DNA from: Nitrospirota bacterium | GTDB taxonomy: Bacteria; Nitrospirota; Thermodesulfovibrionia; UBA6902 | DNA: 64,000 nucleotides | Direction of reading: 5' to 3' | Assembly: GCA_016213945.1 (NCBI GenBank) | Contig: JACQZF010000001.1 | Coordinates: 5,831 to 69,830, forward strand | Shown here: positions 42,099-56,203 of the stretch, one piece after another | How positions within the stretch are numbered: position 1 is the stretch's first letter | How the letters are laid out: each line of letters starts with the position of its first letter | Program-made: the position numbers and the translations under genes | The notes under the pieces: generated by a model | Told to the model about the DNA's origin: nothing | Database searches by the model: none | What the model saw: the letters and a program-made list of their open reading frames with translations, nothing else

Positions 42099-43433
42099 AT
42101 GGCAAAGTTTTCAGTATTCCTGACGATCATGTTCCTGCTTGTAGTGGGCATACTGGCGTTCTTCAACAAGGACACAGTCAACCTGACGGTCTGGCAGGGC
42201 GTCACTTATGAAGTCCCGGTTATCGGCCTTATACTGATCTCCACCGCGGCCGGCATCTTCGCCATGTTCGTTGTCTTTTCCATCAGGGACGCAAGGCGGT
42301 TCTTCAGCAACTGGCAGTTCAACCGCCGCCAGAAGAAGGAATTGAAGATCCAGGAATCCTACACAAGGGGACTCGACGCCTTCTTTGCCTGCAGGTACGA
42401 AGAGGCGGAGGAGCTTTTCACAAAAGTTATTGAAGAAGACCCGTTCAATGTAAACGCCCTGCTGAGGCTGGGGGACATCGCGATCTATGAAGAAGATTAT
42501 TTCAAGGCCAAGGATTTTTATACAAGGGCCAAGGAAATAAAACCGCGCAGCGTTGAGGTATTGCTCTCGCTTGAAAAGGTCTTTGAGGGGCAGCAGAAAT
42601 GGAATGAGGCCCTGAAATATCTTGACACCATCCTTGAGATCGACGAAGAGAACCCTGAGATCCTTTACAGGAAACGCGATATATACGAGAGGGACAAAAA
42701 ATGGGAAGATGTTTTAGAGGTTCAGCACAAGGTGCTTAAATGTGATCTCTCTCCCGAAGAAGAGCAGGAAGAGCACAAAAAACATTTAGGCTACAGGTAC
42801 GAGCTTGGATGCCATTATCTTGAAACGAATAACACTGAAAAGGCGGTGAAGATACTGAAGTCCGTTATCAAGGCGGACAAGGACTTTGCCTCCGCGTACA
42901 TCGCGCTCGCTGAAGCTTATTTAAAAGACGGCAATACGGATGAGGCGCAGGAGCTTCTGCTGAAGGGATATGAAACGACCTCTTCACTGGTCCTGCTTGT
43001 GCGCCTGGAGGACTTTTTCATATCAATGGGAGAGCCGGGCACGATAATCGATCTGTATCAAAAGGCGGTGCAGAAAGACCCTCGTGACCTGAAGCTCCAG
43101 TTCTTCCTTGCGAAACTTTATTACCGCCTTGAGATGATAGATTACGCCTTTGAGACAATCAACGCTCTTGATACCAGCGCATTTGATTTTCCCGACCTGC
43201 ACATCCTTTTAGGCAATATTTACCAGAGACGCTCCCAGGCGGAAAAGGCCGCCGAGGAATTCAAGAAAGCCCTGAAAGTTGACAAGCCGCTGCTTGTGCC
43301 TTTTTGCTGCTCAAACTGCGGGTACACCTCAAAAGACTGGGGCGGGAGATGCCCTTCATGCAAGACCTGGAACACCTTCGTCCTGAATACATATGAAGTC
43401 TGCAAGACAAAGAAAAGACAGAGTAGTTCTTGA
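42099..43433 (+). CDS. LapB(YciM)-like TPR protein with fused N-terminal LapA-like membrane segment and C-terminal rubredoxin-type zinc ribbon
   Basis: Two N-terminal TM helices, then an RRFF segment, multiple TPRs, and C-terminal CCSNCGYTSKDWGGRCPSCKTW (CxxC...CxxC) as in LapB. Confidence 0.6.
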   Translation: MAKFSVFLTIMFLLVVGILAFFNKDTVNLTVWQGVTYEVPVIGLILISTAAGIFAMFVVFSIRDARRFFSNWQFNRRQKKELKIQESYTRGLDAFFACRYEEAEELFTKVIEEDPFNVNALLRLGDIAIYEEDYFKAKDFYTRAKEIKPRSVEVLLSLEKVFEGQQKWNEALKYLDTILEIDEENPEILYRKRDIYERDKKWEDVLEVQHKVLKCDLSPEEEQEEHKKHLGYRYELGCHYLETNNTEKAVKILKSVIKADKDFASAYIALAEAYLKDGNTDEAQELLLKGYETTSSLVLLVRLEDFFISMGEPGTIIDLYQKAVQKDPRDLKLQFFLAKLYYRLEMIDYAFETINALDTSAFDFPDLHILLGNIYQRRSQAEKAAEEFKKALKVDKPLLVPFCCSNCGYTSKDWGGRCPSCKTWNTFVLNTYEVCKTKKRQSSS

Positions 43434-43989
43434 TACAAGCCTTTTTGTAAATCCCGACGTTCGCAATGATTTCGGCGATTCGCCTACAGAGGCAATAAAT
43501 GGATTTCTCCAGATAGCGGAGCAGATACCCTCGCTCGAATTCTACATGCCCTCTTCCATCTTTCAGGAGCTCCTGAATTTTGTGAATGAAAAAGAGATCC
43601 CCGGCGCGCTTCTTGCCGTGCTTCATCAAAAGTCCCCAAGCAAGCATGAACTGACCTGCCCCGCCTTTTTCCTGTACGAGCTCATCGAAGATATAAGGGA
43701 GCGCGTTAACAAAGGATTAAGGATCGCTGAGAAGGCCGTAAGGACCGCGGGCAAAAGCGATGAACGTGAAGTCATCCAGGCCATGAGGAAAAATTACAGG
43801 GAGGCGCTTCGCGAGGGAATAATCGACAGCAAGGAAGACGTGGACCTGATATTGCTGGCAAAAGAACTCGACGCGCTCCTTGTCACCGTCGATCACGGCG
43901 CAATAAAATGGGCCGAGAAGCTGGGCATAAGATGGCTCCTGCCAAGCAAGTTCAAAGAATATCTGCTGAGCTTTATTCAGAACGACTGA
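43393..43989 (+). CDS. PIN-like domain protein (putative ribonuclease)
   Basis: N-terminal VVLDTSLFVNPD acidic PIN-type start. Later TVDHG. About 198 aa. Family assignment tentative. Confidence 0.4.
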   Translation: MKSARQRKDRVVLDTSLFVNPDVRNDFGDSPTEAINGFLQIAEQIPSLEFYMPSSIFQELLNFVNEKEIPGALLAVLHQKSPSKHELTCPAFFLYELIEDIRERVNKGLRIAEKAVRTAGKSDEREVIQAMRKNYREALREGIIDSKEDVDLILLAKELDALLVTVDHGAIKWAEKLGIRWLLPSKFKEYLLSFIQND

Positions 43990-44223
43990 CAGGATTATAT
44001 TCATTCCTCATTATTAATTTTATTTGTCAAAGCCATTATGTCTCCTCTACCTGCCACGCAAAAAATGGAGTAGTTCCGCGAAGTTTTACGTCATTTTTCT
44101 CTGCTTATAGATTCATCAAATATCATGACGGCAGACATATCCCAAGAGATGTTCTATGTGGCTGTTTTACTGCCGTTTAATGTAAAATCTTTCAGAGATA
44201 TTCTCTAATAGAGGACGGGGTTA

Positions 44224-44450
44224 ATGGGCAATAAAACTATTTACGAAAGATTCGCATGGTTTGACAGCAAGGTCAGATCAGGCAAGTATCCCAATGCCAC
44301 GGCTCTCTCGTACTGAGCTTCCCGGCGGCATCATTCATGGAGATCGAAATGGAGGTCTTGAGTCACGGGCATGATGTAGAAGTAATTGCGCCACGGGCAG
44401 TTAGGGAGCTGATTAAGGCGGAAGCGGAAAAGATTGCGGGAATTTATTGA
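44224..44450 (+). pseudogene. Degraded gene remnant: N-terminal HTH-like fragment and C-terminal fragment of a WYL/BrxR-type regulator, in two frames
   Basis: Frame 1: MGNKTIYERFAWFDSKVRSGKYPNATALSY*. Frame 2: ...SHGHDVEVIAPRAVRELIKAEAEKIAGIY*. These resemble the N- and C-termini of wHTH-WYL regulators, with the middle missing. Confidence 0.25.
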
Positions 44451-44539
44451 AGTATAGAAACAAACATGCTCAATTTCCCATTTTTTATGACTGGGGTATA
44501 ATAATAAAATAAATTATAGCTATTTCAAGGAGGTAAAAA

Positions 44540-44737
44540 ATGAGTGTCGGCGTCATGGTTGAGTTAAAGGTAGAAGACATTGCGGCTTCGATTAAGAAAA
44601 TGAAAAAATCAGATAAGGAAATGCTGCTCCTTATGTTGTCAGGAGAAGGCAAGGAAATTGCCAAAAGATTGAAAGAAGTAAATTCCCGAAAAGTAAAAAC
44701 TCTGACAAGAGAGGAGACCTTCAAGAATGTCCTTTAA
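44540..44737 (+). CDS. Putative antitoxin (65 aa) of a RelE/ParE-type module
   Basis: Small charged protein with a strong RBS (AAGGAGGTAAAAAATG). Overlaps the downstream RelE-family toxin gene by 11 nt. Confidence 0.45.
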   Translation: MSVGVMVELKVEDIAASIKKMKKSDKEMLLLMLSGEGKEIAKRLKEVNSRKVKTLTREETFKNVL

Positions 44738-45017
44738 GGATGAGTATCATCCGAAAATAAAATCAGATCTAAAAAAACTTGATAAAGCTGTTGCGCGAGA
44801 AATTTATGATGTACATATAGACAATATTTTACATCACCCCTTCGTTAACGAAAATCTTCACGGAGACCTTGAGGGTGCATCGAGCTACCATTTTAGAAAA
44901 AATAAGGCAGATTACAGAATTGCCTATTCAATTGATAAGTCCCGGAAAGTTGTTTATTTCCTGATGATGGCAAAGAGAGAAAATTTCTACGAGATATTGA
45001 AGAGACGGCTGCTGTGA
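44727..45017 (+). CDS. RelE/ParE-family type II toxin
   Basis: LHGDLEGASSYHFRKNKADYRIAYSIDKSRKVVYFLMMAKRENFY matches the RelE/ParE core (L.G...R.G.YRI.Y.I......V....R...Y). Confidence 0.75.
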   Translation: MSFKDEYHPKIKSDLKKLDKAVAREIYDVHIDNILHHPFVNENLHGDLEGASSYHFRKNKADYRIAYSIDKSRKVVYFLMMAKRENFYEILKRRLL

Positions 45018-45073
45018 AATATCGCCTATTTGGGGCTTTGATATAATGATATGAAAATCAATGGGGTTGAACA

Positions 45074-45343
45074 ATGATAAATGAAACAGATAAAACTATA
45101 ATTTTACAGTGTGCAAAAAAGTTTAATGTCGCTTCTGTTTTCCTTTTCGGGTCGTCTGTCGAGGACGACATGGAGGCTAATGATATAGATATAGCTGTCA
45201 AAGGGATAGAACCGCGCCTATTTTTCAAATTTTATGCGGAGCTGTTTAAGCGTTTGTCAAAACCTGTTGACCTGATAGACCTTTCCAGGAAGACTTTGTT
45301 TAACAACCTTGTGGAAGAGACCGGAGTAAAAATTTATGGGTAA
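45074..45343 (+). CDS. Minimal nucleotidyltransferase (MNT), no HEPN partner evident
   Basis: FLFGSSVEDDMEANDIDIAV (GS...D.D polymerase-beta-type nucleotidyltransferase motif), 89 aa. Confidence 0.75.
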   Translation: MINETDKTIILQCAKKFNVASVFLFGSSVEDDMEANDIDIAVKGIEPRLFFKFYAELFKRLSKPVDLIDLSRKTLFNNLVEETGVKIYG

Positions 45344-45360
45344 AAGTATGGAGGGATTTA

Positions 45361-45588
45361 ATGCTAAAAACCGTTAAGGGACATTACAGTAAAGGCAAAT
45401 TAGAACTTTACGAAAAGCCACAGGTAGAAGAATGTGACGTTCTTGTAACGTTTATCGAGAATGGCGAATCGATAGACCTTCAATCGCGAGGTATATCAAA
45501 AGAAGAAGCACAAGATTTAAGAGGCAGATTGCACACTTTTGAAGATGACTGGAACACGCCTGGGATGGAGCTTTATGACAGAGTATAA
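45361..45588 (+). CDS. Putative antitoxin paired with MazF
   Basis: 75 aa (VKGHYSKGKLELYEKP...VLVTFIE, swapped-hairpin-like). Overlaps the MazF start by 14 nt. Confidence 0.45.
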   Translation: MLKTVKGHYSKGKLELYEKPQVEECDVLVTFIENGESIDLQSRGISKEEAQDLRGRLHTFEDDWNTPGMELYDRV

Positions 45589-45898
45589 AAAAGGTATGGT
45601 TGTTTTAGTCTTATTCCCAAATTCGGATCTGATAACGGCAAAGCGCCGTCCAGCCTTGATTGTACAGGCTGATAATTTGAATACTGGATTGGATCAGGTT
45701 GTCGTGGCAATGATAACAAGCAACTTAAATCGTGACGGACATCCAAGTCGCTTTCGCATTAATAGAGATTCAGAGCAAGGGAAATCTGCCGGCATACTCA
45801 CGGATTCGGTAATAATGGCGGATAATCTTGCCACAGTCAGATTCAAAGAAATTGATAAGACATTGGGGACATTGCCGCTGTTGATAAGGCCCTTATAG
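45575..45898 (+). CDS. MazF/PemK-family endoribonuclease toxin
   Basis: GMVVLVLFPNSDLITAKRRPALIVQADNLN...VVVAMITSN...GILTDSVIMADNLATVRFKEIDKTLGTL is the canonical MazF/PemK pattern. Start moved to MTEYKKG. Confidence 0.8.
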   Translation: MTEYKKGMVVLVLFPNSDLITAKRRPALIVQADNLNTGLDQVVVAMITSNLNRDGHPSRFRINRDSEQGKSAGILTDSVIMADNLATVRFKEIDKTLGTLPLLIRPL

Positions 45899-46014: not shown

Positions 46015-49000
46015 TTGGCTTTGAGTGAAAGTATATTTCAGATTGGGCAAGTGGTTGCCTTGAAATCCAACCCATCGGTCATGGGTGTTATTACAAAAAT
46101 ATTGCGAGGCGATCACGAAACACGTTATGAAGTTTTTCATGGAAATTCAAAGAATATATACTATGCAAGCCAAATAATTCCTTCTCAACAAACTGAAGAA
46201 GAAATTAAGACGATACCGCTAAATTTATTTAATGCGAGATTAACGGCAATACAAATCAATTATCCCGGAATTGCATCTCTCTATTCTCTGCATTCTGCAA
46301 GAGTCAATTTTATCCCATTTCAATTTAAACCCGTCCTGAAACTTATCCGCTCTGACCGCCCAAGATTGTTAATTGCAGATGAAGTGGGAGTCGGTAAGAC
46401 TATAGAAGCGGGATTGATTCTCCGTGAATTGCAGGCAAGAATGAATATTAAATCTATATTGGTTTTATGTCCCAAGCCTCTTGTTACTGATCGAAAGTGG
46501 CAGCTTGAGTTAAAGCGTTTTGACGAAGAATTTACACACCTTGATGGTCCTGCTTTACGCTACTGTATTAATGAAACGGATTTAGACGGAAGATGGCCGA
46601 CTCAGCATAGTAAAACCATTATGCCTTTTTCACTTTTCAATGAGTCGCTCTTAACTGGAGAAGGAAAAGGAAAAAAGAAACAGAAGGGCCTTCTTGAACT
46701 TGACCCGCCGGTTCAGTTTGACCTCGTTATAATTGACGAGGCGCATCATTTGCGTAATACAAACACTTATATTCATCAGGTAGCACGGTATTTCTGTGAA
46801 AACGCAGAGGCTATACTCCTGCTCTCTGCAACACCTATACAATTGGGAGATAATGATCTTTATGTCCTGCTCAACCTGTTACGTCCAGACTTGATTATTG
46901 ACCGCAGCAGTTTTGAACACATGGCAGAACCTAATCCTTTTATTAACCAGGCAATAGATGTTGCACGTGCCGCTCAGCCTCAATGGGAAGCAAGAAGCAG
47001 GGCTGCTTTAAGTGAGGCATCGTTAACAAGCTGGGGGCAAAGAATGCTGAAAAGTAATCCTGATTTTCAACAGGCAATAACGCTTCTTGAAAATCCTTTG
47101 TCCGCAGAGCAACGCCTTGAATTTGTCCGGGCCACTGAACAATTTCATACATTTTCGGGGTTGATTAACAGAACAAGGAGAAGGGACATAGGCGCCTTCA
47201 CTCTCCGCAAATCAGAGACAGTTACGATTGAGTTTACTCAGGAACAGAAGGACCTTCATGATTCTTTACTGGATATACAAGCAGAAATGCTTGGCATGAT
47301 TCATGATCCCCAGCATATTAAATTTATGATGACAACACTGAGAAGACAGGCCTCAAGTTGCATTCATGGGCTTGTTCCATTGATGCAGGCTATATTGAAC
47401 AGGAATCTAAGCAGGGTTACAGATGGTGATAATCTTGAGGAAGATTGGGAAGAATCATTAACTGCATTTAACGACGCTATCCAGAAGATAACCAAACAAG
47501 ACCTTACAAGTCTTATGAGTAAATTTCAGACCATTATTGAAGCAGGGAAAAGACTTAATAAAAGAGATCCGAAATCAGAAGCATTGCTAAATGTAATAAA
47601 ACAAAAACAGTCACTCCCTAATAATAAAATTCTGATTTTCAGTACCTTCCGCCATACACTGACTTATCTCTATACGAAAATGGTCAAGGGCGGGGTAAGG
47701 GTTGGAATGATACATGGCGATATCAAAGATTATGAGAGACTGGAACTAAGACATCGTTTCAGTCTGCCAAAAGAGAACGCTGATGCAATAGATATCCTGC
47801 TTTCCTCTGAAGTCGGTTGTGAAGGATTGGATTATCAATTCTGCGATTGCATGGTTAACTATGATATACCCTGGAACCCCATGAGAGTTGAACAGCGTAT
47901 CGGGCGCATAGACAGATACGGGCAGAAGAGCGAGAGTGTGCTTATCTATAACTTCATCACTCCTGACACAGTGGATGCAGATATATATGAACGCTGTCTT
48001 ATAAGAATCGGGGTTTTTCAAAGAAGTCTTGGAGGCAGTGAGGAGATATTAGGGAAAATCAGTCGGCAGATAATGGATATAGCAGAAAATTATAAGCTTA
48101 CGGAAGACGAAAGGAAAAGAAAATTGCAGCAGCTTGCAGATAATGAAATCCGCCTTCAAATGGAACAGGATGAATTGGAAGAAAGGCAGGCAGAGCTATT
48201 CGGGCTTAGTCTTCCGCTGGATAAAGCGAGAAAGGATATTGAAGACGCGAGTAGTTTCTGGCTTAGCCCTGAAGCGCTGCAGAATCTTGTAGAAACATAT
48301 CTGCAAAAAGTCACCGGAGCAGAACAATCCCTTCTTGGAGAGAAGGACTCAAAAACATTGCGGTTAAATCAAGAGGCAAGAAATAGACTTTTATCAGATT
48401 ACCGTCAGATACCGAAACAATCTTCCCCTGTTTATAGGGACTGGGAGAAATGGCTTAAGGGTGGAGATGCACATCTTCCGCTTACTTTTGACGCCGGGTA
48501 CGCTACAGAAAACCGGGACATTATTTTTATTACACCAGTCCACCCTCTTATACGTCAGGCGGCATCTACACTCCATGAGAAGCCGCCTCTTTATGTCATT
48601 GTTAGATATCCTGGTTATTCAATACCATCTGGGAAGTATCCATTTGCTGTTTACCAATGGCAAAAGACAGGGGTCAAATCAGATGCGGAGTTTCAGGTGA
48701 TTTGTAGTTCAGAAGCTGTTTCCAGCTCCTTTATGCAGTTGATTACAACAGCAACCGATGCAGAAGAAGGCCTTTATGGACTACCGGACAAGCATGTTTT
48801 TGACGAACTGGATAAGCAGCATTACGGTCTGTGGATTAATGCGAGAGATAAACACGTTCAGAGTAATAACCGAATGATAGAATTTCGTACCGAGAGTTTA
48901 AAAACGAGTCATAACGCAAGACTGAATCAACTGAATGATCTGTTAAGCAGGGCGGAAAACGATAGGATACAACGCATGAGAATTAGCCAGATTGCATCGG

Positions 49001-49104
49001 CAGAGGTTGATTTCCAGAGACGGATGAAAGAGATAGAAGAAGCGAGAACAAAGGCAGATATTATCAGTGAGCCAGTGGCTTTTGGGGTATTTATTATTGA
49101 ATAA
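46015..49104 (+). CDS. SNF2/SWI2-family helicase (1029 aa) with small N-terminal beta-rich domain and long C-terminal extension
   Basis: Motif I LIADEVGVGKTIEAG. DEAH box LVIIDEAHHLRN. Motif III LLLSATPIQL. C-lobe ILIFSTFRHT... and DIPWNPMRVEQRIGRIDRYGQ (motifs V/VI). Coiled-coil region about 680-720. 13-nt gap to the next gene. Confidence 0.85.
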   Translation: MALSESIFQIGQVVALKSNPSVMGVITKILRGDHETRYEVFHGNSKNIYYASQIIPSQQTEEEIKTIPLNLFNARLTAIQINYPGIASLYSLHSARVNFIPFQFKPVLKLIRSDRPRLLIADEVGVGKTIEAGLILRELQARMNIKSILVLCPKPLVTDRKWQLELKRFDEEFTHLDGPALRYCINETDLDGRWPTQHSKTIMPFSLFNESLLTGEGKGKKKQKGLLELDPPVQFDLVIIDEAHHLRNTNTYIHQVARYFCENAEAILLLSATPIQLGDNDLYVLLNLLRPDLIIDRSSFEHMAEPNPFINQAIDVARAAQPQWEARSRAALSEASLTSWGQRMLKSNPDFQQAITLLENPLSAEQRLEFVRATEQFHTFSGLINRTRRRDIGAFTLRKSETVTIEFTQEQKDLHDSLLDIQAEMLGMIHDPQHIKFMMTTLRRQASSCIHGLVPLMQAILNRNLSRVTDGDNLEEDWEESLTAFNDAIQKITKQDLTSLMSKFQTIIEAGKRLNKRDPKSEALLNVIKQKQSLPNNKILIFSTFRHTLTYLYTKMVKGGVRVGMIHGDIKDYERLELRHRFSLPKENADAIDILLSSEVGCEGLDYQFCDCMVNYDIPWNPMRVEQRIGRIDRYGQKSESVLIYNFITPDTVDADIYERCLIRIGVFQRSLGGSEEILGKISRQIMDIAENYKLTEDERKRKLQQLADNEIRLQMEQDELEERQAELFGLSLPLDKARKDIEDASSFWLSPEALQNLVETYLQKVTGAEQSLLGEKDSKTLRLNQEARNRLLSDYRQIPKQSSPVYRDWEKWLKGGDAHLPLTFDAGYATENRDIIFITPVHPLIRQAASTLHEKPPLYVIVRYPGYSIPSGKYPFAVYQWQKTGVKSDAEFQVICSSEAVSSSFMQLITTATDAEEGLYGLPDKHVFDELDKQHYGLWINARDKHVQSNNRMIEFRTESLKTSHNARLNQLNDLLSRAENDRIQRMRISQIASAEVDFQRRMKEIEEARTKADIISEPVAFGVFIIE

Positions 49105-49117
49105 AGGGGGACAGTAG

Positions 49118-52100
49118 ATGAGTGACCAACTTAATTTTCTTTCAAGCGTGTTGGCAAAGCGCATAAAATGGGTTGAGGCAAACAGAGAAAACGACTTTGA
49201 AGAAGGCATTCAGACCCTTCTTACAGAATTATATCCAGATACAGCCCATTTCATATTTGAGCTCTTGCAAAATGCCGAAGACGCAGGAGCAACAAAAATT
49301 GTATTCAACCTGAAGAAGAATATGTTGAGAGTTACTCATAATGGCAAACGGGTGTTCGATGAGAAAGATGTTGAATCCATCACTAACATAGGCAAGAGTA
49401 CAAAAAAGGATGATGTAAACCAAATTGGCAAATTCGGCGTGGGCTTTAAATCGGTGTTTTCATACACAAGTACCCCTCTCGTACATTCCTGTAATTTTTC
49501 GTTTGAACTGAGGGATCTCGTCTGTCCGTATGCCATACAAAAACCTCTCGATTTAGGGCAACACACGTTGTTTGAGTTTCCTTTTAATCATGAAAAGAAG
49601 AACGCCGAGCAGTCGTTCAATGAAACTGCCAATATGCTCCAGTCATTAAAAGAAAATGTGCTTTTATTTCTGAACAATATTGATGAAGTAGAATGGCAGA
49701 TAGAAGGGCAAGGAAGAGGGTTTGTCACACGGCTGCCCTATAACGAAAACCATATAGAGATAGATTACCAGAGCGTAACCGGCGAAAGGGCAACCTCTCA
49801 CTGGTTACGTTTTACTAAGCCGTATAGGGAAGATGCAAAACTGCATATAGCAATAGCATTTAAACTATCCTTTGTGTCAGAGGTTCAGAGTCTGTTGGAC
49901 GATAAGAAGACAATCGCAAAACAAATGACCATATCGCCAATCTACGGCAGACTTTCAATCTTCTTCCCTGCTGAAAAGGAAACGACAAACCTCAAGTTTC
50001 ATATTCACGGCCCTTATGCCTCAACTGTCGCAAGAGACAGTATTCCTGATAAGAACGAGGGTAACAAAAAACTTCTGCAAATGACGGCTTCCCTGTTGGC
50101 AGAAAGTCTGCATAAAATACAAGAAATGGGACTGCTCACAGCGGAGTTTCTTGCCGTGCTGCCTAATGATACTGATGAACTGGCAGAATTCTATAAACCG
50201 ATTCAGGCAGCAGTTATTAAGGAAATGAAATCAAGCCCACTTGTCCCTACGCACAGTAAAGATTTTGCTTCGGCAGACAATCTGTATCAGGGACCAGCAG
50301 CTATTCGGGAAGTTATTTCTGACGATGACCTTGGATTCCTTTCGGATACGGACCAAGTTAAATGGGCGATTGGAGTTATGCAAAACTCACGGCAAGAAAA
50401 GTTCATGAAGACGTTGGGGATAGACGAGTGGGGATGGCCTGAACTTACGGAAGCAATTGAAGATAAATTCTATTCAGCGGATAAAAATGCTCTTTCATGG
50501 CTGTCACATAGAAAAGATATGTGGATGCAAAAATTATATGGTCTATTAAAAAAAGCATTGGATTCAGAAGAGATACGTCCTTGGAAATTAAGACAGTGCG
50601 AGATTATAAGATTAGAGTCAGGGGAGCATACAAGCGGTGATGGAGTTTATTTCCCGGATTTGATAGATAAAGATAGCAAAGGCACAAGCGCTTTACCTCG
50701 TGTTAGAACAGAAATATTTAAAGGCAGAAAAGAACAAATCGAAAAGATTCGTCAGTTCCTTGAGTATATGGGTGTCAAGGAAGTCGGCGAAAAGGAGGAG
50801 GTAGAGTATATATTCAAAACATATTATTCAGAAAACTCTAAAAAAACTCCTTCTATTAAGCAACATATTCAGCATATGAAGAAATTCATATCTTATTGGA
50901 ATGGTCATAAGGAAGATACTGTAGATATGTTCTCAGGTTATGAAATATTTCATGACTATTCCGGCTCAACTCTCCGTTCAGCAGAAGAATTGTATATTGA
51001 CATGCCTTATCTTGAAACAGGACTTACAGATTTTTTTCAAAATACAAAGAATGTAGAGGTGAAAAAATACAAGTTATGGGATGGTTATGCGGAAAAAAGA
51101 ATTGCTAATTTTAAAGAGTTTACTAAAGCTGCTGGTGTGATGCATGGATTAGAACTTAGAAAAGCTTCAGCAACACTATTGCAACCAAGGATTTTTCAAA
51201 AAAATGGTAACCAGACAGTCAATACTATAAATCAAGATCATTTTGTTAATGGTCTACACTGGTACAATAAGCAATCATCCAAATACATTGGGATGTTTAA
51301 GTTAGATTGCAATAATATTTATCTCAGTAAGCTGCTCTGGAAATGTATGAGCAACGCTTCCCCGGAGATATTAAGAGCAAAATATAAACCAAATGCACAG
51401 TATAATGAGACAACAGATTCGTCATTAGTTATAAAACAACTTAAGGAATATAGCTGGATTCCTGATAAGAAAGGCAACTTTCATAAGCCATGTGATATTA
51501 CCCAAGACATGCTTCACAAAGATTTCCCTTATGACGACAGAAACGGGTGGCTAACAGCTATCGGTTTTGGAGAAAACCAGAAAAAACAAACAGAAGAATA
51601 TAAGACATTTAAAACACTATGTGAAAATATGGGGTTTGATGATGACACCTTCGAATTAATAAATGAATTGAAGGGAATAGCATCGGACGAGCAAAAGCAA
51701 TTATTGAAAGATATCATTGGTCAACTGAAGACAAAGAGACTCAACCCATCTTTCCCCGAAAAAGAATCCGCCGATCCTGAAAGAAGGGCCTCTAAGATCA
51801 AGGAAAATTTAGCAGGCGCACCCGAAAAGGAATATGAAGTAAGGGATCGCTCCGTTAGAACGACTTCTAATGAAATCAAGCCGGATGGCAAAATATATCT
51901 CCGTAACAATTATACGAATGAGGATGGAGAAATGTTCTGCCAAGTATGTAAAGAAGTTATGCCGTTTAAGCTTGACGATGGCTCTCATTACTTTGAGGCT
52001 GTAGAGTGCATAAAAGACTTTCCCAAGGAATGCAGGGAAAACTACCTCGCCCTCTGTCCAGTTTGCGCAGCCAAATACAAACACGCCAATACCTCTAAAC

Positions 52101-52240
52101 CGGAAGACCTCCGTGCAAAGCTTTCGGATACTGACAACGAGGACCTCTCAATTCCTGTAACTATTGCCCGTGAAGACAAAACAATCCGCTTTGTGAAAAT
52201 CCATCTGGAGGATTTAAGGACAATATTAAATGAAAAGTAA
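49118..52240 (+). CDS. Large GHKL (Bergerat-fold, sacsin/Hsp90/MORC-like) ATPase protein (1040 aa) with C-terminal Cys-rich HNH-like zinc-finger motif
   Basis: N-box FELLQNAEDAGATKIVF. G-box GKFGVGFKSVFSYT. C-terminal CQVCKEVMPFKLDDGSHYFEAVECIKDFPKECRENYLALCPVCAAKYKH (CxxC-H-N-CxxC-H pattern). RBS AAGGGGGA. Confidence 0.7.
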   Translation: MSDQLNFLSSVLAKRIKWVEANRENDFEEGIQTLLTELYPDTAHFIFELLQNAEDAGATKIVFNLKKNMLRVTHNGKRVFDEKDVESITNIGKSTKKDDVNQIGKFGVGFKSVFSYTSTPLVHSCNFSFELRDLVCPYAIQKPLDLGQHTLFEFPFNHEKKNAEQSFNETANMLQSLKENVLLFLNNIDEVEWQIEGQGRGFVTRLPYNENHIEIDYQSVTGERATSHWLRFTKPYREDAKLHIAIAFKLSFVSEVQSLLDDKKTIAKQMTISPIYGRLSIFFPAEKETTNLKFHIHGPYASTVARDSIPDKNEGNKKLLQMTASLLAESLHKIQEMGLLTAEFLAVLPNDTDELAEFYKPIQAAVIKEMKSSPLVPTHSKDFASADNLYQGPAAIREVISDDDLGFLSDTDQVKWAIGVMQNSRQEKFMKTLGIDEWGWPELTEAIEDKFYSADKNALSWLSHRKDMWMQKLYGLLKKALDSEEIRPWKLRQCEIIRLESGEHTSGDGVYFPDLIDKDSKGTSALPRVRTEIFKGRKEQIEKIRQFLEYMGVKEVGEKEEVEYIFKTYYSENSKKTPSIKQHIQHMKKFISYWNGHKEDTVDMFSGYEIFHDYSGSTLRSAEELYIDMPYLETGLTDFFQNTKNVEVKKYKLWDGYAEKRIANFKEFTKAAGVMHGLELRKASATLLQPRIFQKNGNQTVNTINQDHFVNGLHWYNKQSSKYIGMFKLDCNNIYLSKLLWKCMSNASPEILRAKYKPNAQYNETTDSSLVIKQLKEYSWIPDKKGNFHKPCDITQDMLHKDFPYDDRNGWLTAIGFGENQKKQTEEYKTFKTLCENMGFDDDTFELINELKGIASDEQKQLLKDIIGQLKTKRLNPSFPEKESADPERRASKIKENLAGAPEKEYEVRDRSVRTTSNEIKPDGKIYLRNNYTNEDGEMFCQVCKEVMPFKLDDGSHYFEAVECIKDFPKECRENYLALCPVCAAKYKHANTSKPEDLRAKLSDTDNEDLSIPVTIAREDKTIRFVKIHLEDLRTILNEK

Positions 52241-52286: not shown

Positions 52287-54014
52287 TCATTCCTTCTTTT
52301 TCAACACCCACAGCAAAGCCCTCGCCCTCGTCGCTCCGACATACAGATTCGAGGGCTTACATGCCGGCAGATGTCCGTCGATACTGCAGAGAATAACAAC
52401 ATCAGCCTCAAGTCCTTTAAATGACTGTATCGTTCCCACACGGATTTTGCCTTGTCCCTTTTTGACCATGTCCGTCGTGAACAGGTCTTTTCCTTCTTCG
52501 ATCATCTGTTTTATACCGGCCCTTTGGTTGTCATATTTATAGGGAGACAGCACAACTATTTCATCGGGGGAAACCTTTTGCTTTCTGAGAAGATCATCTA
52601 ACAATCCTTTTAGCAGAACCGGAACTTCATTGATATCAGAGTAATATTTAACCTCAGGTTTCGGCCCCTCGTTTACAGCATATTGGGCTTTCCCCGGTAT
52701 GTTTCCGATCTTGAGCGCAAAGTCACCAATAGGTTTTGTATTCCGTACATTCTGTTCCAGCACAAAAGGTTCTGCCATAAAAGGGGCATTCCATTCTCCG
52801 CTTTCGTTATACAGGTTCTGGTTCCTGTCGTAGAACACATAATAAGAATGGTTGTCAGCTCCCAATGATTCAAGCGATATCCACCATGTGTCTTTAAAGT
52901 CGAGCGCTTCATCAACGATGATGGTGTCATATTTATGCGCGATAAACTCGGAAGTCTTCTCAAGAAGTTCCGCGCAGCCGGTATCAAAGAAATGCCGTTT
53001 CATTTCCTCTTCATCCGGGACTTCATAAGTGACCGCATGTCTTTCACAGAGCCTCTTGACGAGCTCATGGAAATTAAGCACATCTATCCTTTCATTACCC
53101 TGAAATTCAAAAGCAACATATTCGGCAAGGTTCTTATTGAAGCAAGTGAATAAAACTTTCTTGCCATCATTTATATGGTCATGTGCAAGTCTCACTGCAA
53201 GTAGCGTTTTGCCTGAACCTGCACAGCCTTCAACAAGGAGACGCTTCTGCATTCTCAAAGCCCTGAGCGTCTTGATCTGTCCCTCGGTCATCCTGTAGAG
53301 GTTGTCTTTTATAGTCCCAAGCACAACTCCTAACGGCGGCAGCATATTCACTTCTGGGGCAAGGGACCTTATCAGGGAATCGATCTGAGAACGAGACCAT
53401 GGGGCTGGATTGGGAGATGACTGGCGCATGATATTCCTAAGATGGTTAGAGCAATTTTTCAGATGTCTTGAATCGAGAACAAATCCATTATGAGGAACCT
53501 CAGGCGGGACATCCTCTGTCCATGTGATATCAGGAAACCATGCTGTATGAGTAAATACAGTGGACTTTAAAAACTCCTGTCCGATGGGTGTCTTTTTCAG
53601 TCTATCAAAGAGGTAATACCGGCTGCGGCCTGCCTGTTCAATGGGGGAATGCATTCTGCTGACAACGCTTCCATCGAAGAGGCTCACATAATACCACTCC
53701 CCGTCCTGCAGCTTGACCCCGCCTCCCTTGACCTCAACTACAAGGACACCTAAATCCGGGTGAAAGATGATCAGATCAATTTCGCCGGAACGCTCGCCGC
53801 TTCTTTGATCGATCTCTCTCCATGCAAGATTGTGAAAAATCCTCCAGTCATCATTCAGATCAGAAAGCGCATCGAGCACTCTTTTTTCAGCATGGTACCC
53901 GGTTCTCTCGATTCCCCGGGATTCATCTGTGTCGAATGGGGGATAAAAGATTGCCATATCAGCAAATAGCTTACAACATATACGCATTATTAGGCATAAC
54001 TTACTGTAAAACAT
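52287..54014 (-). CDS. NERD-domain + SF1 (UvrD-like) helicase
   Basis: N-terminal NERD pattern (...GEIDLIIFHPDLGVLVVEVKGGG...). Walker A VEGCAGSGKT. Walker B TIIVDEALDF. Motif V/VI (TIQSFKGLEADVVIL; YVGATRARALLWVL). True start may be the internal MAIFYPPF. Confidence 0.8.
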   Translation of the reverse strand: MFYSKLCLIMRICCKLFADMAIFYPPFDTDESRGIERTGYHAEKRVLDALSDLNDDWRIFHNLAWREIDQRSGERSGEIDLIIFHPDLGVLVVEVKGGGVKLQDGEWYYVSLFDGSVVSRMHSPIEQAGRSRYYLFDRLKKTPIGQEFLKSTVFTHTAWFPDITWTEDVPPEVPHNGFVLDSRHLKNCSNHLRNIMRQSSPNPAPWSRSQIDSLIRSLAPEVNMLPPLGVVLGTIKDNLYRMTEGQIKTLRALRMQKRLLVEGCAGSGKTLLAVRLAHDHINDGKKVLFTCFNKNLAEYVAFEFQGNERIDVLNFHELVKRLCERHAVTYEVPDEEEMKRHFFDTGCAELLEKTSEFIAHKYDTIIVDEALDFKDTWWISLESLGADNHSYYVFYDRNQNLYNESGEWNAPFMAEPFVLEQNVRNTKPIGDFALKIGNIPGKAQYAVNEGPKPEVKYYSDINEVPVLLKGLLDDLLRKQKVSPDEIVVLSPYKYDNQRAGIKQMIEEGKDLFTTDMVKKGQGKIRVGTIQSFKGLEADVVILCSIDGHLPACKPSNLYVGATRARALLWVLKKKE

Positions 54015-54090: not shown

Positions 54091-54489
54091 TTGATCATGA
54101 TGAATATGATTGTAATCAAAACAAATAACGAGCAGTACAAAGAATTTCTTGAAAAATACGCTCCGGATATTGAATATATTATGAGAGGGTTAGCGAGGCA
54201 TTATAAATTCCGCCCGCCAAAAAATATAATCTTCCGTCCAATGCGGAAAATAGGCAGCCAGCATTTTATCCGCTGTGTTTGGGCAAACGCCGGTTGGAGT
54301 CATGGTGCAGGATATTACATATCGTTAGACATGGAATCTAATATGCCCTTAAGCAGATCGCGAATCCTCGATACAATTGCCCACGAAGCCGCCCATATTG
54401 CAGAAGTATTAACGACGAACGAATGTACGCACGGAAAGAGGTGGCAGGAGCTGTATGGGACTGCGAAGGAAATTTTGAAAGCTCAATGA
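54091..54489 (+). CDS. SprT-like zinc metallopeptidase domain protein
   Basis: HEAAH zinc-binding motif (TIAHEAAHIAE) followed by THGKRWQ, the HExxH...HG pattern of the SprT/WLM family. Confidence 0.6.
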   Translation: MIMMNMIVIKTNNEQYKEFLEKYAPDIEYIMRGLARHYKFRPPKNIIFRPMRKIGSQHFIRCVWANAGWSHGAGYYISLDMESNMPLSRSRILDTIAHEAAHIAEVLTTNECTHGKRWQELYGTAKEILKAQ

Positions 54490-56116: not shown

Positions 56117-56203
56117 TGGTGCCGAAGGCGGGATTTGAACCCGCACAGCCTTTCGACCACTAGACCCTGAACCTAGCGCGTCTGCCAGTTCCGCCACTTC
56201 GGC
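56117..56203 (-). tRNA. tRNA-Leu (anticodon CAG), long variable arm, encoded CCA
   Basis: Reverse complement reads GCCGAAGTGGCGGAACTGGCAGACGCGCTAGGTTCAGGGTCTAGTGGTCGAAAGGCTGTGCGGGTTCAAATCCCGCCTTCGGCACCA. Cloverleaf with anticodon loop TTCAGGG, type II variable arm, T-arm GGTTCAAATCC. Confidence 0.85.

Follow-up and report, generated by a model that had tools for sequence, protein, structure and literature searches.

The window analysed here, a stretch of 64,000 nucleotides from a Nitrospirota bacterium, holds one copy of a widespread bacterial gene pair in which a RapA/DrmD-like SNF2 dsDNA translocase whose N- and C-terminal domains are specific to the family (gene A) is followed by a sacsin-type GHKL protein (gene B). 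The pair is an uncharacterised, Tiamat-related two-gene variant of the GHKL-plus-SNF2 conflict systems, related both to single-gene Tiamat and to the restriction-like operons of MORC/paraMORC plus SNF2 that a 2008 study predicted, and a literature search found no experiment on it. A defence role is likely. On balance we favour, by a modest degree, reading the pair as a self-contained conflict module of two genes that moves horizontally and most probably acts against phages or plasmids, because the two genes behave as a unit, occur in mobile and defence contexts, include a TmtA homologue, retain intact motifs, and combine a sensor-like gene B with an optional HEPN domain; counted against this, RapA- and Hsp90-like folds also fit non-immune roles.

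Table 1. Features of the gene pair (window positions; residue numbers refer to the gene in which the feature lies)
Feature	Position	Strand	Details
Gene A: RapA/DrmD-like SNF2 ATPase, HEPN-less form	46015..49104	+	1029 aa, TTG start
N-terminal five-stranded beta-barrel, aa 13-56	46051..46182	+	AF2 model m080755fa2bdf
SNF2 N-lobe, aa 107-305, Walker A GVGKT and DEAH box	46333..46929	+	Pfam SNF2-rel_dom aa 116-305, ResIII aa 107-275
SNF2 C-lobe, aa 520-636, motif VI QRIGRIDRYGQ	47572..47922	+	Pfam Helicase_C 1.2e-20
Family-specific C-terminal region, aa 700-1029	48112..49101	+	AF2 model, invariant residues
Shine-Dalgarno-like AAGGGGGA	49104..49111	+	6 nt 5' of gene B ATG
Gene B: sacsin-type GHKL protein, TmtA(Tiamat)-related	49118..52240	+	1040 aa, ATG start
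Bergerat-fold ATP-binding domain, aa 28-125	49199..49492	+	Pfam SACS aa 31-125; PDB profile match sacsin SR1 1.5e-17
Transducer / Hsp90-middle-like region, aa 126-420, conserved FFPAEKET...FHIHGP..ST.ARDS block	49493..50377	+	
Fast-evolving middle region, aa 421-830, ends in conserved DDRNGWLTAIGFGE motif	50378..51607	+	Per-block identity, entropy
McrA-type HNH-like Cys4 zinc finger, aa 924-990, catalytic residues replaced	51887..52087	+	
C-terminal tail, aa 991-1040: helix, beta-hairpin, helix	52088..52237	+	Invariant F1025, H1029; near-invariant D1032

The original prediction of two tightly coupled genes on one strand holds to the nucleotide (Table 1). The gene A stop codon TAA occupies 49102-49104 and the gene B ATG lies at 49118, giving a gap of 13 nt; this gap and the ribosome-binding site proposed with it are both present in the sequence, and a scan of the + strand between the genes gave no terminator-like site. 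The NCBI annotation of gene A (P0121) starts 22 codons later; the residues N-terminal to the NCBI-chosen Met are kept in homologues, which makes the TTG start plausible.

The complete SNF2 motor first read in gene A is borne out, with GVGKT, DEAH(H), LSATP and QRIGRIDRYGQ all present in the translation and Pfam in agreement (SNF2-rel_dom, 2.8e-19). Residues G125, G127, K128, T129, D241, E242, A243 and H244 are invariant among 70 homologues, and the most conserved block spans aa 601-640 with an identity of 0.91. The AF2 model of gene A has moderate confidence overall (pLDDT 73), and in it the N-terminal barrel is formed by strands at aa 13-16, 23-30, 37-42, 45-50 and 54-56 (pLDDT about 80-86). 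This barrel has no Pfam match, appears SH3/Tudor-like from its secondary structure, and may act as a contact for a partner or a polymerase. The C-terminal region, likewise without a Pfam match, folds in the model into an alpha/beta domain (approximately aa 780-912) and a long hairpin of helices (aa 926-1013), with a strand at the end; its many invariant residues include W810, W813, Y880, W882, H936, W940, E960, S961, H966 and R969. It is common to all orthologous partners, phmmer coverage extending to aa 1025-1029.

Among sequence models, gene A fits best to DISARM DrmD (PADLOC PDLC02623, 1.3e-110, 369 bits) and E. coli RapA, with HmaA as a secondary PADLOC match (7.6e-43), and the best Foldseek matches are to full-length RapA (E 1.9e-31). 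Gene A nevertheless lies under both NCBIfam equivalog cutoffs (DISARM_DrmD, 323 bits against 610; RapA, 186 bits against 576) and differs from both proteins in its family-specific terminal domains. None of DrmA, DrmB, DrmC and DrmM is present with gene A.

Gene B has more than 2599 homologues, and its assignment as a GHKL protein from the ELLQNAEDA and GKFGVGFKS sequences, both found in the translation, agrees with the sacsin profiles (Pfam SACS, 2.6e-21; NCBIfam sacsin N-terminal ATP-binding domain, 94.9 bits with a cutoff of 50), the NCBIfam HSP90-family score being 15.8 against a cutoff of 455. The N-box (E48-LLQ-N52-AE-D55), the sacsin-type G1 box (H74-N-G76) and the G2 box (G104-KFGVGFK111) are all recognisable, with E48, N52, D55, H74, G104, G107 and K111 conserved in 101/101 homologues; the motif residues of the window copy are thus intact in both proteins, as in the 70 SNF2 and 101 GHKL homologues. 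The G1 box reads H-N-G, not DxGxG, and whether sacsin domains bind ATP is a matter of debate (PMC9880540), so ATP-driven dimerisation of gene B is an assumption. The AF2 model (me4a4ad0a2d6d, pLDDT 90) finds its best structural matches in TRAP1/Hsp90 over about 550 columns. The middle region is modelled with a pLDDT of about 90, has no Pfam or PDB sequence match over aa 421-830, and within aa 441-760, where most of the variation lies, shows per-block identities of 0.21-0.33 and entropies of 2.1-2.5. Mean identity among homologues is lower for gene B than for gene A (0.37 versus 0.52), and at one locus a motor of 87% identity goes with a GHKL partner of 35% identity; this pattern of variation suggests sensor-like behaviour of gene B.

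The C-terminal CQVC...H...N...CPVC...H motif, read earlier as compatible with an HNH-type nuclease finger, is present and homologous to the McrA HNH domain; the nuclease part of that reading probably does not stand, as both the catalytic and the metal-binding His have given way to other residues throughout the gene B family. Compared with the HNH domains of E. coli McrA and TagI (PDB codes 6ghc and 6ghs), the McrA HH, N and H positions become V-(Q/E), N in just 60%, and A/S, and no modified-base-binding N-terminal domain was identified. The Cys4 finger descends from a McrA-type HNH nuclease with loss of the catalytic residues, and it is probably a DNA-binding finger rather than a nuclease. Searches of the window pair for NOV_C/DUF3883, HEPN, PLD and PD-(D/E)xK domains gave no match and a methyltransferase is absent, which together with the degenerate HNH counts against the conflict-module reading of this copy. 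As suggested, the pair resembles an immunity module, though the window copy has no recognisable working nuclease.

Genes A and B are a conserved unit. The expected co-occurrence of the two families is strongly upheld, with an SNF2 gene adjoining the GHKL gene in 72 of the 79 species-level loci that could be evaluated, which span about 15 phyla. With one exception (L083, 274 bits) the adjacent SNF2 is an orthologue; complete orthologues score about 740-1270 bits, and the alignments run over the full length, C-terminal region included. The genes overlap by 4 nt in most homologous loci, and in one (L060) the SNF2 gene lies on the opposite strand. The identity matrices of A and B correlate (r=0.88, Mantel p=0.001, n=67). 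No third conserved gene was found among 117 nearest neighbours, in which no nuclease family is conserved and, in line with the earlier remark that the pair carries no methyltransferase, none of these is conserved either.

An HEPN_Swt1 domain with an intact RN[RK]xAH motif stands N-terminal to SNF2 in 46 of 68 full-length partners, suggesting that the pair usually acts by cleaving RNA, and is absent from gene A and from the whole window. The HEPN-SWI2/SNF2 fusions described by Anantharaman et al. 2013 (PMC3710099; e.g. WQE_15321) resemble most gene A orthologues in their Swt1-like HEPN and SNF2 architecture, differ in this from the HEPN-less window gene A, and are not linked to a sacsin-like GHKL partner in that paper's passages on sacsin and SNF2. 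The window copy might then be an effector-less remnant of an RNA-cleaving abortive-infection system (HEPN-SNF2 plus GHKL, or SNF2, an HEPN-like gene and GHKL) that has lost its HEPN and is now inactive or a decoy/regulator. The lack of a detectable nuclease in the pair would fit, as would the closest locus (L004; SNF2 80% and GHKL 58% identical), where an extra 300-aa gene with an Rx4H-like motif (KFRNVLFHEG), absent from the window, lies between SNF2 and GHKL. We consider this unlikely: that insert matched nothing in Pfam or PADLOC and lacks homologues at other loci, neither window gene is truncated and all family-invariant residues are intact in both, and HEPN-less partners fall in at least six clades of the SNF2 tree, with HEPN-less two-gene pairs in Actinomycetota, Poribacteria, Desulfovibrio, Nitrospirota and alpha-proteobacteria. 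The window copy is one example of this recurrent HEPN-less form.

As originally described, the pair is flanked by toxin-antitoxin genes and a NERD-helicase within a low-GC islet (0.38-0.42 over 44-53 kb compared with 0.46-0.49 in the flanks). PIN_5, ParE-like, Pol-beta NTase and PemK/MazF genes lie upstream of gene A, and downstream of gene B is a convergent NERD and UvrD-type helicase gene (52287-54014). The mobile and defence setting recurs elsewhere, in individual example loci that include an ICE in P. aeruginosa, a conjugative plasmid in Ensifer, Gabija-like AAA_15/21 and UvrD genes with SbcCD-like genes, a DUF499/DUF1156/PLD-helicase system, a preceding WYL regulator with HNH and PIN/MazE genes beside, and, at six loci, a GHKL gene within an SNF2-AbiJ(HEPN)-type III MTase-type III REase block; contexts vary between ICEs, plasmids and R-M, MANTIS-like and Gabija-like neighbours. 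A nuclease might be supplied in trans by such a neighbour, in the window by the NERD-helicase, which matches the PADLOC model RTasNERD-Hel (8.7e-64) and whose stop codon is 46 nt from that of gene B. Similar neighbours include an HNH gene adjoining the HEPN-less pair in L086, a RecB-like PD-(D/E)xK/SF1 protein in Ensifer and three other HEPN-less loci, a Sulfuricurvum NERD gene overlapping a Tiamat-like sacsin-NOV_C gene, and, in two Arthrobacter loci, homologues of the NERD-helicase at 6-8 kb from the pair. The arrangement is quite unlikely given that no nuclease family is conserved beside the pair, that the pair and the window NERD-helicase are encoded on opposite strands, and that NERD-helicases occur as stand-alone defence-island genes.

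The statement that the pair matches no established system is not supported for gene B, whose best PADLOC match is TmtA (PDLC03972, 2.3e-64, 216 bits) of Tiamat, an anti-phage system of one gene (Millman et al. 2022) reported with a PD-(D/E)xK domain and a mechanism given as unknown in a 2026 review. All nine PADLOC models matched best or at meaningful E-values are TmtA, making gene B a relative of Tiamat, not a member. Both have an N-terminal sacsin-type GHKL domain, a collinear core of approximately 800 aa and defence-island settings. That gene B is simply Tiamat beside an unrelated orphan DrmD-like helicase, as an automated annotator would probably say from the best PADLOC matches, is very unlikely. 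The alignment (gene B aa 7-794, profile positions 6-804 of 1302) covers 61% of the profile, collinearity ending in the middle region at about aa 794; the C-terminal NOV_C/PF13020 (DUF3883) of the Tiamat-like comparator is replaced in gene B by the degenerate McrA-type finger; gene B depends on a co-evolving, often HEPN-bearing SNF2 partner; and the DrmD match lies under its cutoff with DrmA, DrmB and DrmC absent. A non-immune role, such as RapA-like transcription recycling with an Hsp90-like chaperone or DNA-topology factor, would suit the structural matches and the chaperone function reported for eukaryotic sacsin (PMC3710099), and is highly improbable given the sub-cutoff RapA and HSP90-family scores, the patchy spread over phyla with different neighbours in every locus, ICE and plasmid carriage, HEPN toxin-domain fusions and the low-GC islet amid TA genes.

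Two further systems are comparable with the conflict module favoured here. Hma is likewise built on a bacterial SNF2 motor, HmaA being an SNF2 and NOV_C nickase active against T4 (PMC11232893); the pair differs in lacking NOV_C, the DUF1156 methylase and the DUF499 AAA+ ATPase, and HmaC is AAA+ rather than GHKL, gene B having no PADLOC match to it. In the MORC/paraMORC restriction-like operons, for which DNA looping or clamping plus a motor was predicted (Iyer, Abhiman & Aravind 2008, PMC2292703), a GHKL+S5 ATPase gene also adjoins an SWI2/SNF2 (SF-II) helicase and an HNH-family domain is part of the system. The pair differs in its sacsin/Hsp90-like GHKL clade, in the main form having no methylase and a catalytically degenerate HNH, and in a commonest effector that is an HEPN RNase, not a DNase.

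In the proposed mechanism, ATP binding would dimerise gene B through its GHKL heads, as in MutL, MORC and Hsp90, the inactive HNH finger would grip nucleic acid, and the variable middle region would read an invader-specific cue. The SNF2 motor, docked by its conserved C-terminal region, would then translocate on or remodel the bound DNA, and in about two-thirds of the family this may activate the HEPN RNase (RNxxAH) carried on the motor, giving abortive or transcript-level immunity. In the HEPN-less window copy, ATP-driven clamping or remodelling alone might block replication or transcription of the invader, or a nuclease might be supplied in trans. Three modules, SNF2, sacsin-GHKL and NOV_C, seem to be joined two at a time, as SNF2 with NOV_C in HmaA, GHKL with NOV_C in TmtA, and SNF2 with GHKL in the present pair.

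Translation of the window reproduces exactly the two open reading frames of the original prediction, coordinates included, and every motif quoted for them is found in their products, referred to here as protein A (the SNF2 ATPase encoded by gene A) and protein B (the sacsin-type GHKL protein encoded by gene B). The 13-nt gap and ribosome-binding site are as described, with AAGGGGGA lying within the gap 6 nt ahead of the gene B ATG. Pfam assigns SNF2-rel_dom and Helicase_C to protein A, and SACS (the sacsin domain) with a weak HATPase_c_3 match to protein B, in agreement with the SNF2 and GHKL identities first proposed, and a Pfam scan of the neighboring open reading frames returns the flanking toxin-antitoxin genes and the NERD-helicase named at the outset. 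The AT-richer block is also confirmed, with the GC content down to 0.38-0.42 across 44-53 kb, and the islet is bordered by housekeeping genes on the left (catalase, cytidylyltransferase, and a LapB-like TPR protein) and on the right (dienelactone hydrolase, a tRNA-Leu gene, and cytochromes). Nothing informative came of scanning for promoters and terminators: 13 promoter-like sites are seen where 18.5 are expected. A protein in a Nitrospirae MAG has the same sequence as protein B (100% identity).

Features of the window in and around the SNF2-GHKL gene pair
Feature	Window position	Strand	Remark
PIN_5	43393-43989	+	upstream run of toxin-antitoxin-type genes (43393-45898)
ParE-like toxin	44727-45017	+	upstream toxin-antitoxin-type run
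Pol-beta/MNT nucleotidyltransferase	45074-45343	+	upstream toxin-antitoxin-type run; no HEPN partner detected
75-aa open reading frame without match	45361-45588	+	upstream toxin-antitoxin-type run
PemK/MazF	45539-45898	+	upstream toxin-antitoxin-type run
Gene A, SNF2 ATPase	46015-49104	+	1029 aa; TTG start
Gene B, sacsin-type GHKL protein	49118-52240	+	1040 aa
NERD + UvrD-type SF1 helicase	52287-54014	-	convergent with gene B, stop codons 46 nt apart
SprT-like metalloprotease-domain open reading frame	54091-54489	+	adjoins the NERD-helicase
tRNA-Leu(CAG)	56117-56203	-	~2 kb past the low-GC islet

The NERD-helicase matches the PADLOC model RTasNERD-Hel (8.7e-64) and C3a187 NERD+UvrD. Homologues of it lie 6-8 kb away from the SNF2-GHKL pair at two Arthrobacter loci, and on the Sulfuricurvum plasmid pSULKU01 a NERD gene overlaps a sacsin-NOV_C gene resembling that of Tiamat, a single-gene anti-phage system.

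The sacsin-type GHKL domain of protein B is supported by Pfam SACS (77 bits, cutoff 32.8), by the NCBIfam model NF047352 for the sacsin N-terminal ATP-binding-like domain (94.9 bits, cutoff 50), and by a PDB profile match to sacsin SR1 (1.5e-17). Its ATPase motifs are intact, with N-box residues Glu-48, Asn-52, and Asp-55 and G2 box residues Gly-104, Gly-107, and Lys-111 invariant in 101 homologues and a G1 box of the sacsin type (H-N/D-G) in the same set; whether domains of this sacsin type bind ATP is a matter of debate (PMC9880540). The structure model is of high confidence (pLDDT 90), and about 550 columns of it align in Foldseek with full-length TRAP1/Hsp90, a likeness that is at the level of the fold only, as the NCBIfam model PRK14083 (cutoff 455) gives 15.8 bits and an Hsp90/HtpG equivalog is rejected. 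Sequence variability is concentrated in residues 441-760, and in the C-terminal tail Phe-1025 and His-1029 are invariant and Asp-1032 is near-invariant.

The C-terminal finger of protein B had been read as compatible with an HNH-type nuclease finger. Its homology to McrA stands, as the Cys4 zinc β-β-α fold of the McrA-type HNH is present; the nuclease does not, the catalytic residues being replaced throughout the family. Zinc ligands Cys-941, Cys-944, and Cys-980 are each 100% conserved among the 101 homologues, and position 983 is Cys in 96 and His in 5. The McrA "HH" general base falls at Val-962-Glu-963, where position 963 is Gln in 49 homologues, Glu in 42, and never His. The McrA Asn corresponds to position 975 (Asn in 60 of 101), and the final metal-binding His to position 984, which is Ala in 87, Ser in 11, and never His or Asn. 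Because the McrA catalytic residues are missing family-wide, an active HNH nuclease is rejected as the effector of the pair. Judged from these substitutions, the degenerate finger is an inactivated HNH kept as a zinc finger, with nucleic-acid binding the most likely role.

The best profile models for protein A are those of DrmD, the DISARM SNF2 protein (369 bits in PADLOC; 323 bits in NCBIfam, cutoff 610), and NCBIfam DrmD_b gives 143 bits, under its cutoff of 950. By sequence, RapA is the best solved relative (3e-32), and Foldseek aligns it over the whole length at 1.9e-31 compared with ~1e-16 for chromatin remodelers; a RapA equivalog is rejected, since PRK04914 scores 186 bits and the cutoff of 576 is not reached. 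No NOV_C domain is found in protein A by Pfam searches. Pfam matches nothing in the C-terminal third, which is nevertheless rich in invariant residues and kept in all orthologues. The public annotation of the gene (P0121) is 1007 aa long, starting 22 codons downstream of the TTG, and the residues it skips (IGQVVALKSNPSV, window 46015-46080) are conserved among homologues; in the protein A model they make up the opening strand of a predicted N-terminal barrel.

A pattern scan taking one genome per species gave >534 relatives, of which the best 80 loci were kept; one of these is too short to judge, leaving 79 evaluable. Co-occurrence of the two families across genomes, proposed as a check with the original prediction, is borne out, with an SNF2 gene directly beside the GHKL gene in 72 of the 79. 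At homologous loci the two genes usually overlap by 4 nt, and at one locus (L060) the SNF2 gene is on the strand opposite to the GHKL gene. In all but one of the 72, the adjoining SNF2 is clearly orthologous to gene A, scoring ~740-1270 bits where complete and aligning through the end of the C-terminal region; at the exception, L083, it scores 274 bits and aligns over residues 82-1011. Linkage is accompanied by co-evolution, the identity matrices of proteins A and B over 67 pairs being correlated with r = 0.88 (Mantel p = 0.001) and the mean identity being 0.52 for the motor versus 0.37 for the GHKL protein. At the Nitrospiraceae locus L086 (10001-16209) the SNF2 protein is 87% identical to that of the window and the adjacent GHKL protein only 35% identical, a discordance that suggests a recombinational swap of the GHKL partner between systems.

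No further conserved family is found among the 117 nearest neighbors by Pfam, PADLOC, or all-against-all clustering, and a conserved third gene is rejected, the extras being lineage-restricted: a 184-aa sigma-70-like protein at eight α-proteobacterial loci, a type III R-M block at six variant loci, and a RecB-like gene at a few. The 184-aa gene lies just upstream of the SNF2 gene (L088, 3229-3783; L054, L058, L062, L063, L066, L067, and L068, ~6.2-6.8 kb); its product has no Pfam or PADLOC match, resembles sigma-70 regions 2 and 4 by eye only (LGxDATGYDTARRRMxR), and may be a dedicated regulator. The 7 exceptions among the 79 loci comprise one locus without an SNF2 gene and six with a common architecture (L016, 1637-15392, as an example; L019, L021, L024, L029, and L034) composed of a DrmD-b-like SNF2, an AbiJ-type HEPN, a type III methylase, a type III restriction enzyme, the GHKL gene, and PDC-S06. 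In this variant the GHKL gene sits within an R-M-like system whose SNF2 is of another type and whose HEPN is encoded separately. Related MTase/REase genes lie near two Sphingomonadaceae loci (L041 and L047).

In many relatives the SNF2 partner carries a HEPN domain. HEPN_Swt1 is placed at the N terminus of the partner in Pseudomonas aeruginosa, in Desulfosediminicola, and in a metagenome homologue; 46 of 68 full-length partners are HEPN-fused, the RN[RK]xAH motif is intact in 10 of 12 HEPN sequences inspected, and, among the 120 highest-ranking database homologues of gene A, roughly two in three have PF18731. A 2013 paper (PMC3710099) already remarks on fusion of HEPN to SNF2, and excerpts from it make no link to a sacsin-like partner. 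There is no room for a HEPN domain in protein A of the window because the PemK gene ends 116 nt upstream, and a custom HMM built from the 46 fused HEPN domains detects no credible HEPN within the window, its best match (E 0.0019) lying inside an aldehyde-dehydrogenase open reading frame. HEPN-less partners are spread over at least six separate clades of the SNF2 tree, and bare two-gene pairs like that of the window occur at L017, L069, L070, L072, L073, L075, L082, L086, and L087.

Other HEPN-less forms carry lineage-specific additions, the 184-aa gene of the α-proteobacteria among them. In the closest locus, L004, a further gene of 300 aa (3676-4578), absent from the window, separates SNF2 from GHKL; the insert bears a HEPN-like Rx4H motif (KFRNVLFHEG), has no Pfam or PADLOC match, and lacks homologues at the 88 other loci. 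Small genes lie between the SNF2 and GHKL genes at L042 (8533-9956) and L044 (9258-9841), PIN/VapC-like and antitoxin-like by eye; the one insert scanned, a 312-aa open reading frame at L042 (8533-9468), has no Pfam match, and if the likeness holds these would be toxin-antitoxin modules nested in the operon. N-terminal extensions of 170-220 aa occur in some GHKL orthologues (L061, 3898-4440; L055, 9362-10000), with a weak LSm/Hfq-like match at L061 (E 0.0011), and the database GHKL homologue P0009 carries an OST-HTH domain (PF12872), additions that point to possible RNA binding, in line with the HEPN theme. As HEPN-less forms recur, with varied additions, the invariant core is SNF2 plus GHKL, and HEPN is its commonest optional output.

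The pair spans about 15 phyla, with >2,500 GHKL homologues (E≤1e-5) and >7,500 SNF2 homologues (E≤1e-20) among 8,000 candidates scored for each. It is found on a P. aeruginosa ICE, on a conjugative Ensifer plasmid beside a RecB-like/MkoA-like nuclease-helicase, beside Gabija-like and SbcCD-like genes, downstream of a WYL regulator and upstream of HNH and MazE/PIN genes at L086, and directly after a block of DndB and DUF499/DUF3780/DUF1156/PLD-helicase genes resembling BREX-related systems such as MANTIS. Settings like those of these example loci are typical of a mobile conflict module. A plasmid collection holds three full-length matches and a phage collection one partial match; the pair is rare in both collections and resides mainly on chromosomes or ICEs.

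Against PADLOC, every significant match of protein B is to TmtA, the Tiamat protein (best 2.3e-64). With model PDLC03972 (216 bits), residues 7-794 align to positions 6-804 of 1302, leaving the last ~500 profile positions unmatched. Tiamat is a validated anti-phage gene of unknown mechanism for which a PD-(D/E)xK domain is reported; the text of the Millman preprint does not name its domains. A Tiamat-like Sulfuricurvum plasmid protein combines SACS with NOV_C (PF13020, formerly DUF3883; 6.1e-17), and PF13020 is not detected in protein B at E≤0.1 over the whole protein or at E≤10 over residues 885-1040. TmtA and protein B have the N-terminal sacsin-type GHKL ATPase domain in common, whereas Tiamat is a single gene and the pair has a co-evolving SNF2 neighbor. 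Membership in Tiamat is rejected on the missing NOV_C and the two-gene organization; the profile match is partial. Against the earlier view that it matches no familiar system, the pair is a relative of this one and shares its GHKL core.

The 19 open reading frames of ≥74 aa over 37.9-61.4 kb are toxin-antitoxin, NERD-helicase, SprT-like, and housekeeping genes, and among them Pfam finds neither the DISARM core of DrmA and DrmB, a DUF1998 helicase pair, nor any DrmC, methylase, HmaB-like, or HmaC-like gene. DISARM is rejected on these absences and on the DrmD score under cutoff. Hma, which comprises HmaA (SNF2+NOV_C), HmaB (DUF1156), and HmaC (an AAA+ protein with DUF499) (PMC11232893), is rejected as gene A is without NOV_C and no HmaB-like or HmaC-like gene is nearby, and BREX-related systems and MANTIS are rejected for want of their defining components. 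A related theme is that of the restriction-like MORC/paraMORC-SFII systems, which, like the pair, place a GHKL + S5/transducer ATPase beside a SWI2/SNF2 helicase; they have an active endonuclease and often a methylase, whereas the window locus has the degenerate HNH and, as first proposed, no methyltransferase in a Pfam scan. A methylase and restriction enzyme accompany the GHKL gene only in the six-locus variant. SNF2, sacsin-GHKL, and NOV_C occur in all pairwise combinations (HmaA, TmtA, and the pair). In the literature searched, no paper names or tests an SNF2 + sacsin pair; an earlier description may exist elsewhere. The description that suits the pair best is a new two-gene form of the known GHKL + SF-II helicase conflict theme, and the finding is not categorically new. 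The original prediction is confirmed in its observations and supported in part in its interpretation: the two genes are a real, conserved candidate defense pair, but it missed the relationship to Tiamat, the dead HNH, and the absence of the usual HEPN effector.

The mechanism can be outlined by analogy with MutL, MORC, and Hsp90 and from the 2008 prediction for GHKL-SFII operons (PMC2292703). Driven by ATP, the heads of protein B would dimerize on or around nucleic acid to which the zinc finger is bound, the variable middle region would recognize the invader, the SNF2 partner would translocate or remodel, and HEPN, where present, would be activated. For the window copy, with neither HEPN nor an active HNH, the preferred reading is that the output would be direct ATP-dependent interference with replication or transcription of the invader. 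The main alternatives are that this copy uses a nuclease in trans or that it has lost function. In a further reading, which we consider improbable as a whole, the SNF2-GHKL core would be a nuclease-free immune module whose clamp and motor silence invading DNA and do not cut it. An ATP-gated Hsp90/MORC-like clamp anchored by the dead HNH finger would act with the RapA-like motor to entrap or compact the DNA or to strip transcription or replication machinery from it; HEPN, NOV_C, or R-M modules would be optional add-ons, and the core would be the counterpart in prokaryotes of eukaryotic silencing partnerships between GHKL proteins (MORC/SMCHD1/NOV/sacsin) and SNF2 proteins, and might be their source.

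In the pair, the GHKL core of Tiamat stands apart from its nuclease and is partnered with an SNF2 motor that co-evolves with it, which gives a natural "separation of functions" series with SNF2+NOV_C in HmaA, GHKL+NOV_C in TmtA, and SNF2+GHKL with or without HEPN in the pair, which should be of moderate to high interest to defense-system specialists. The family is large, and its spread across phyla and presence in P. aeruginosa ICEs make it experimentally tractable. If the HEPN-less form does not protect, it documents effector loss that leaves intact sensor-motor pairs in genomes. If it does, it would be a defense system of two ATPases with no evident nuclease or methylase, and would bear on the cooperation of GHKL clamp and SNF2 motor that is also used in eukaryotic genome silencing.
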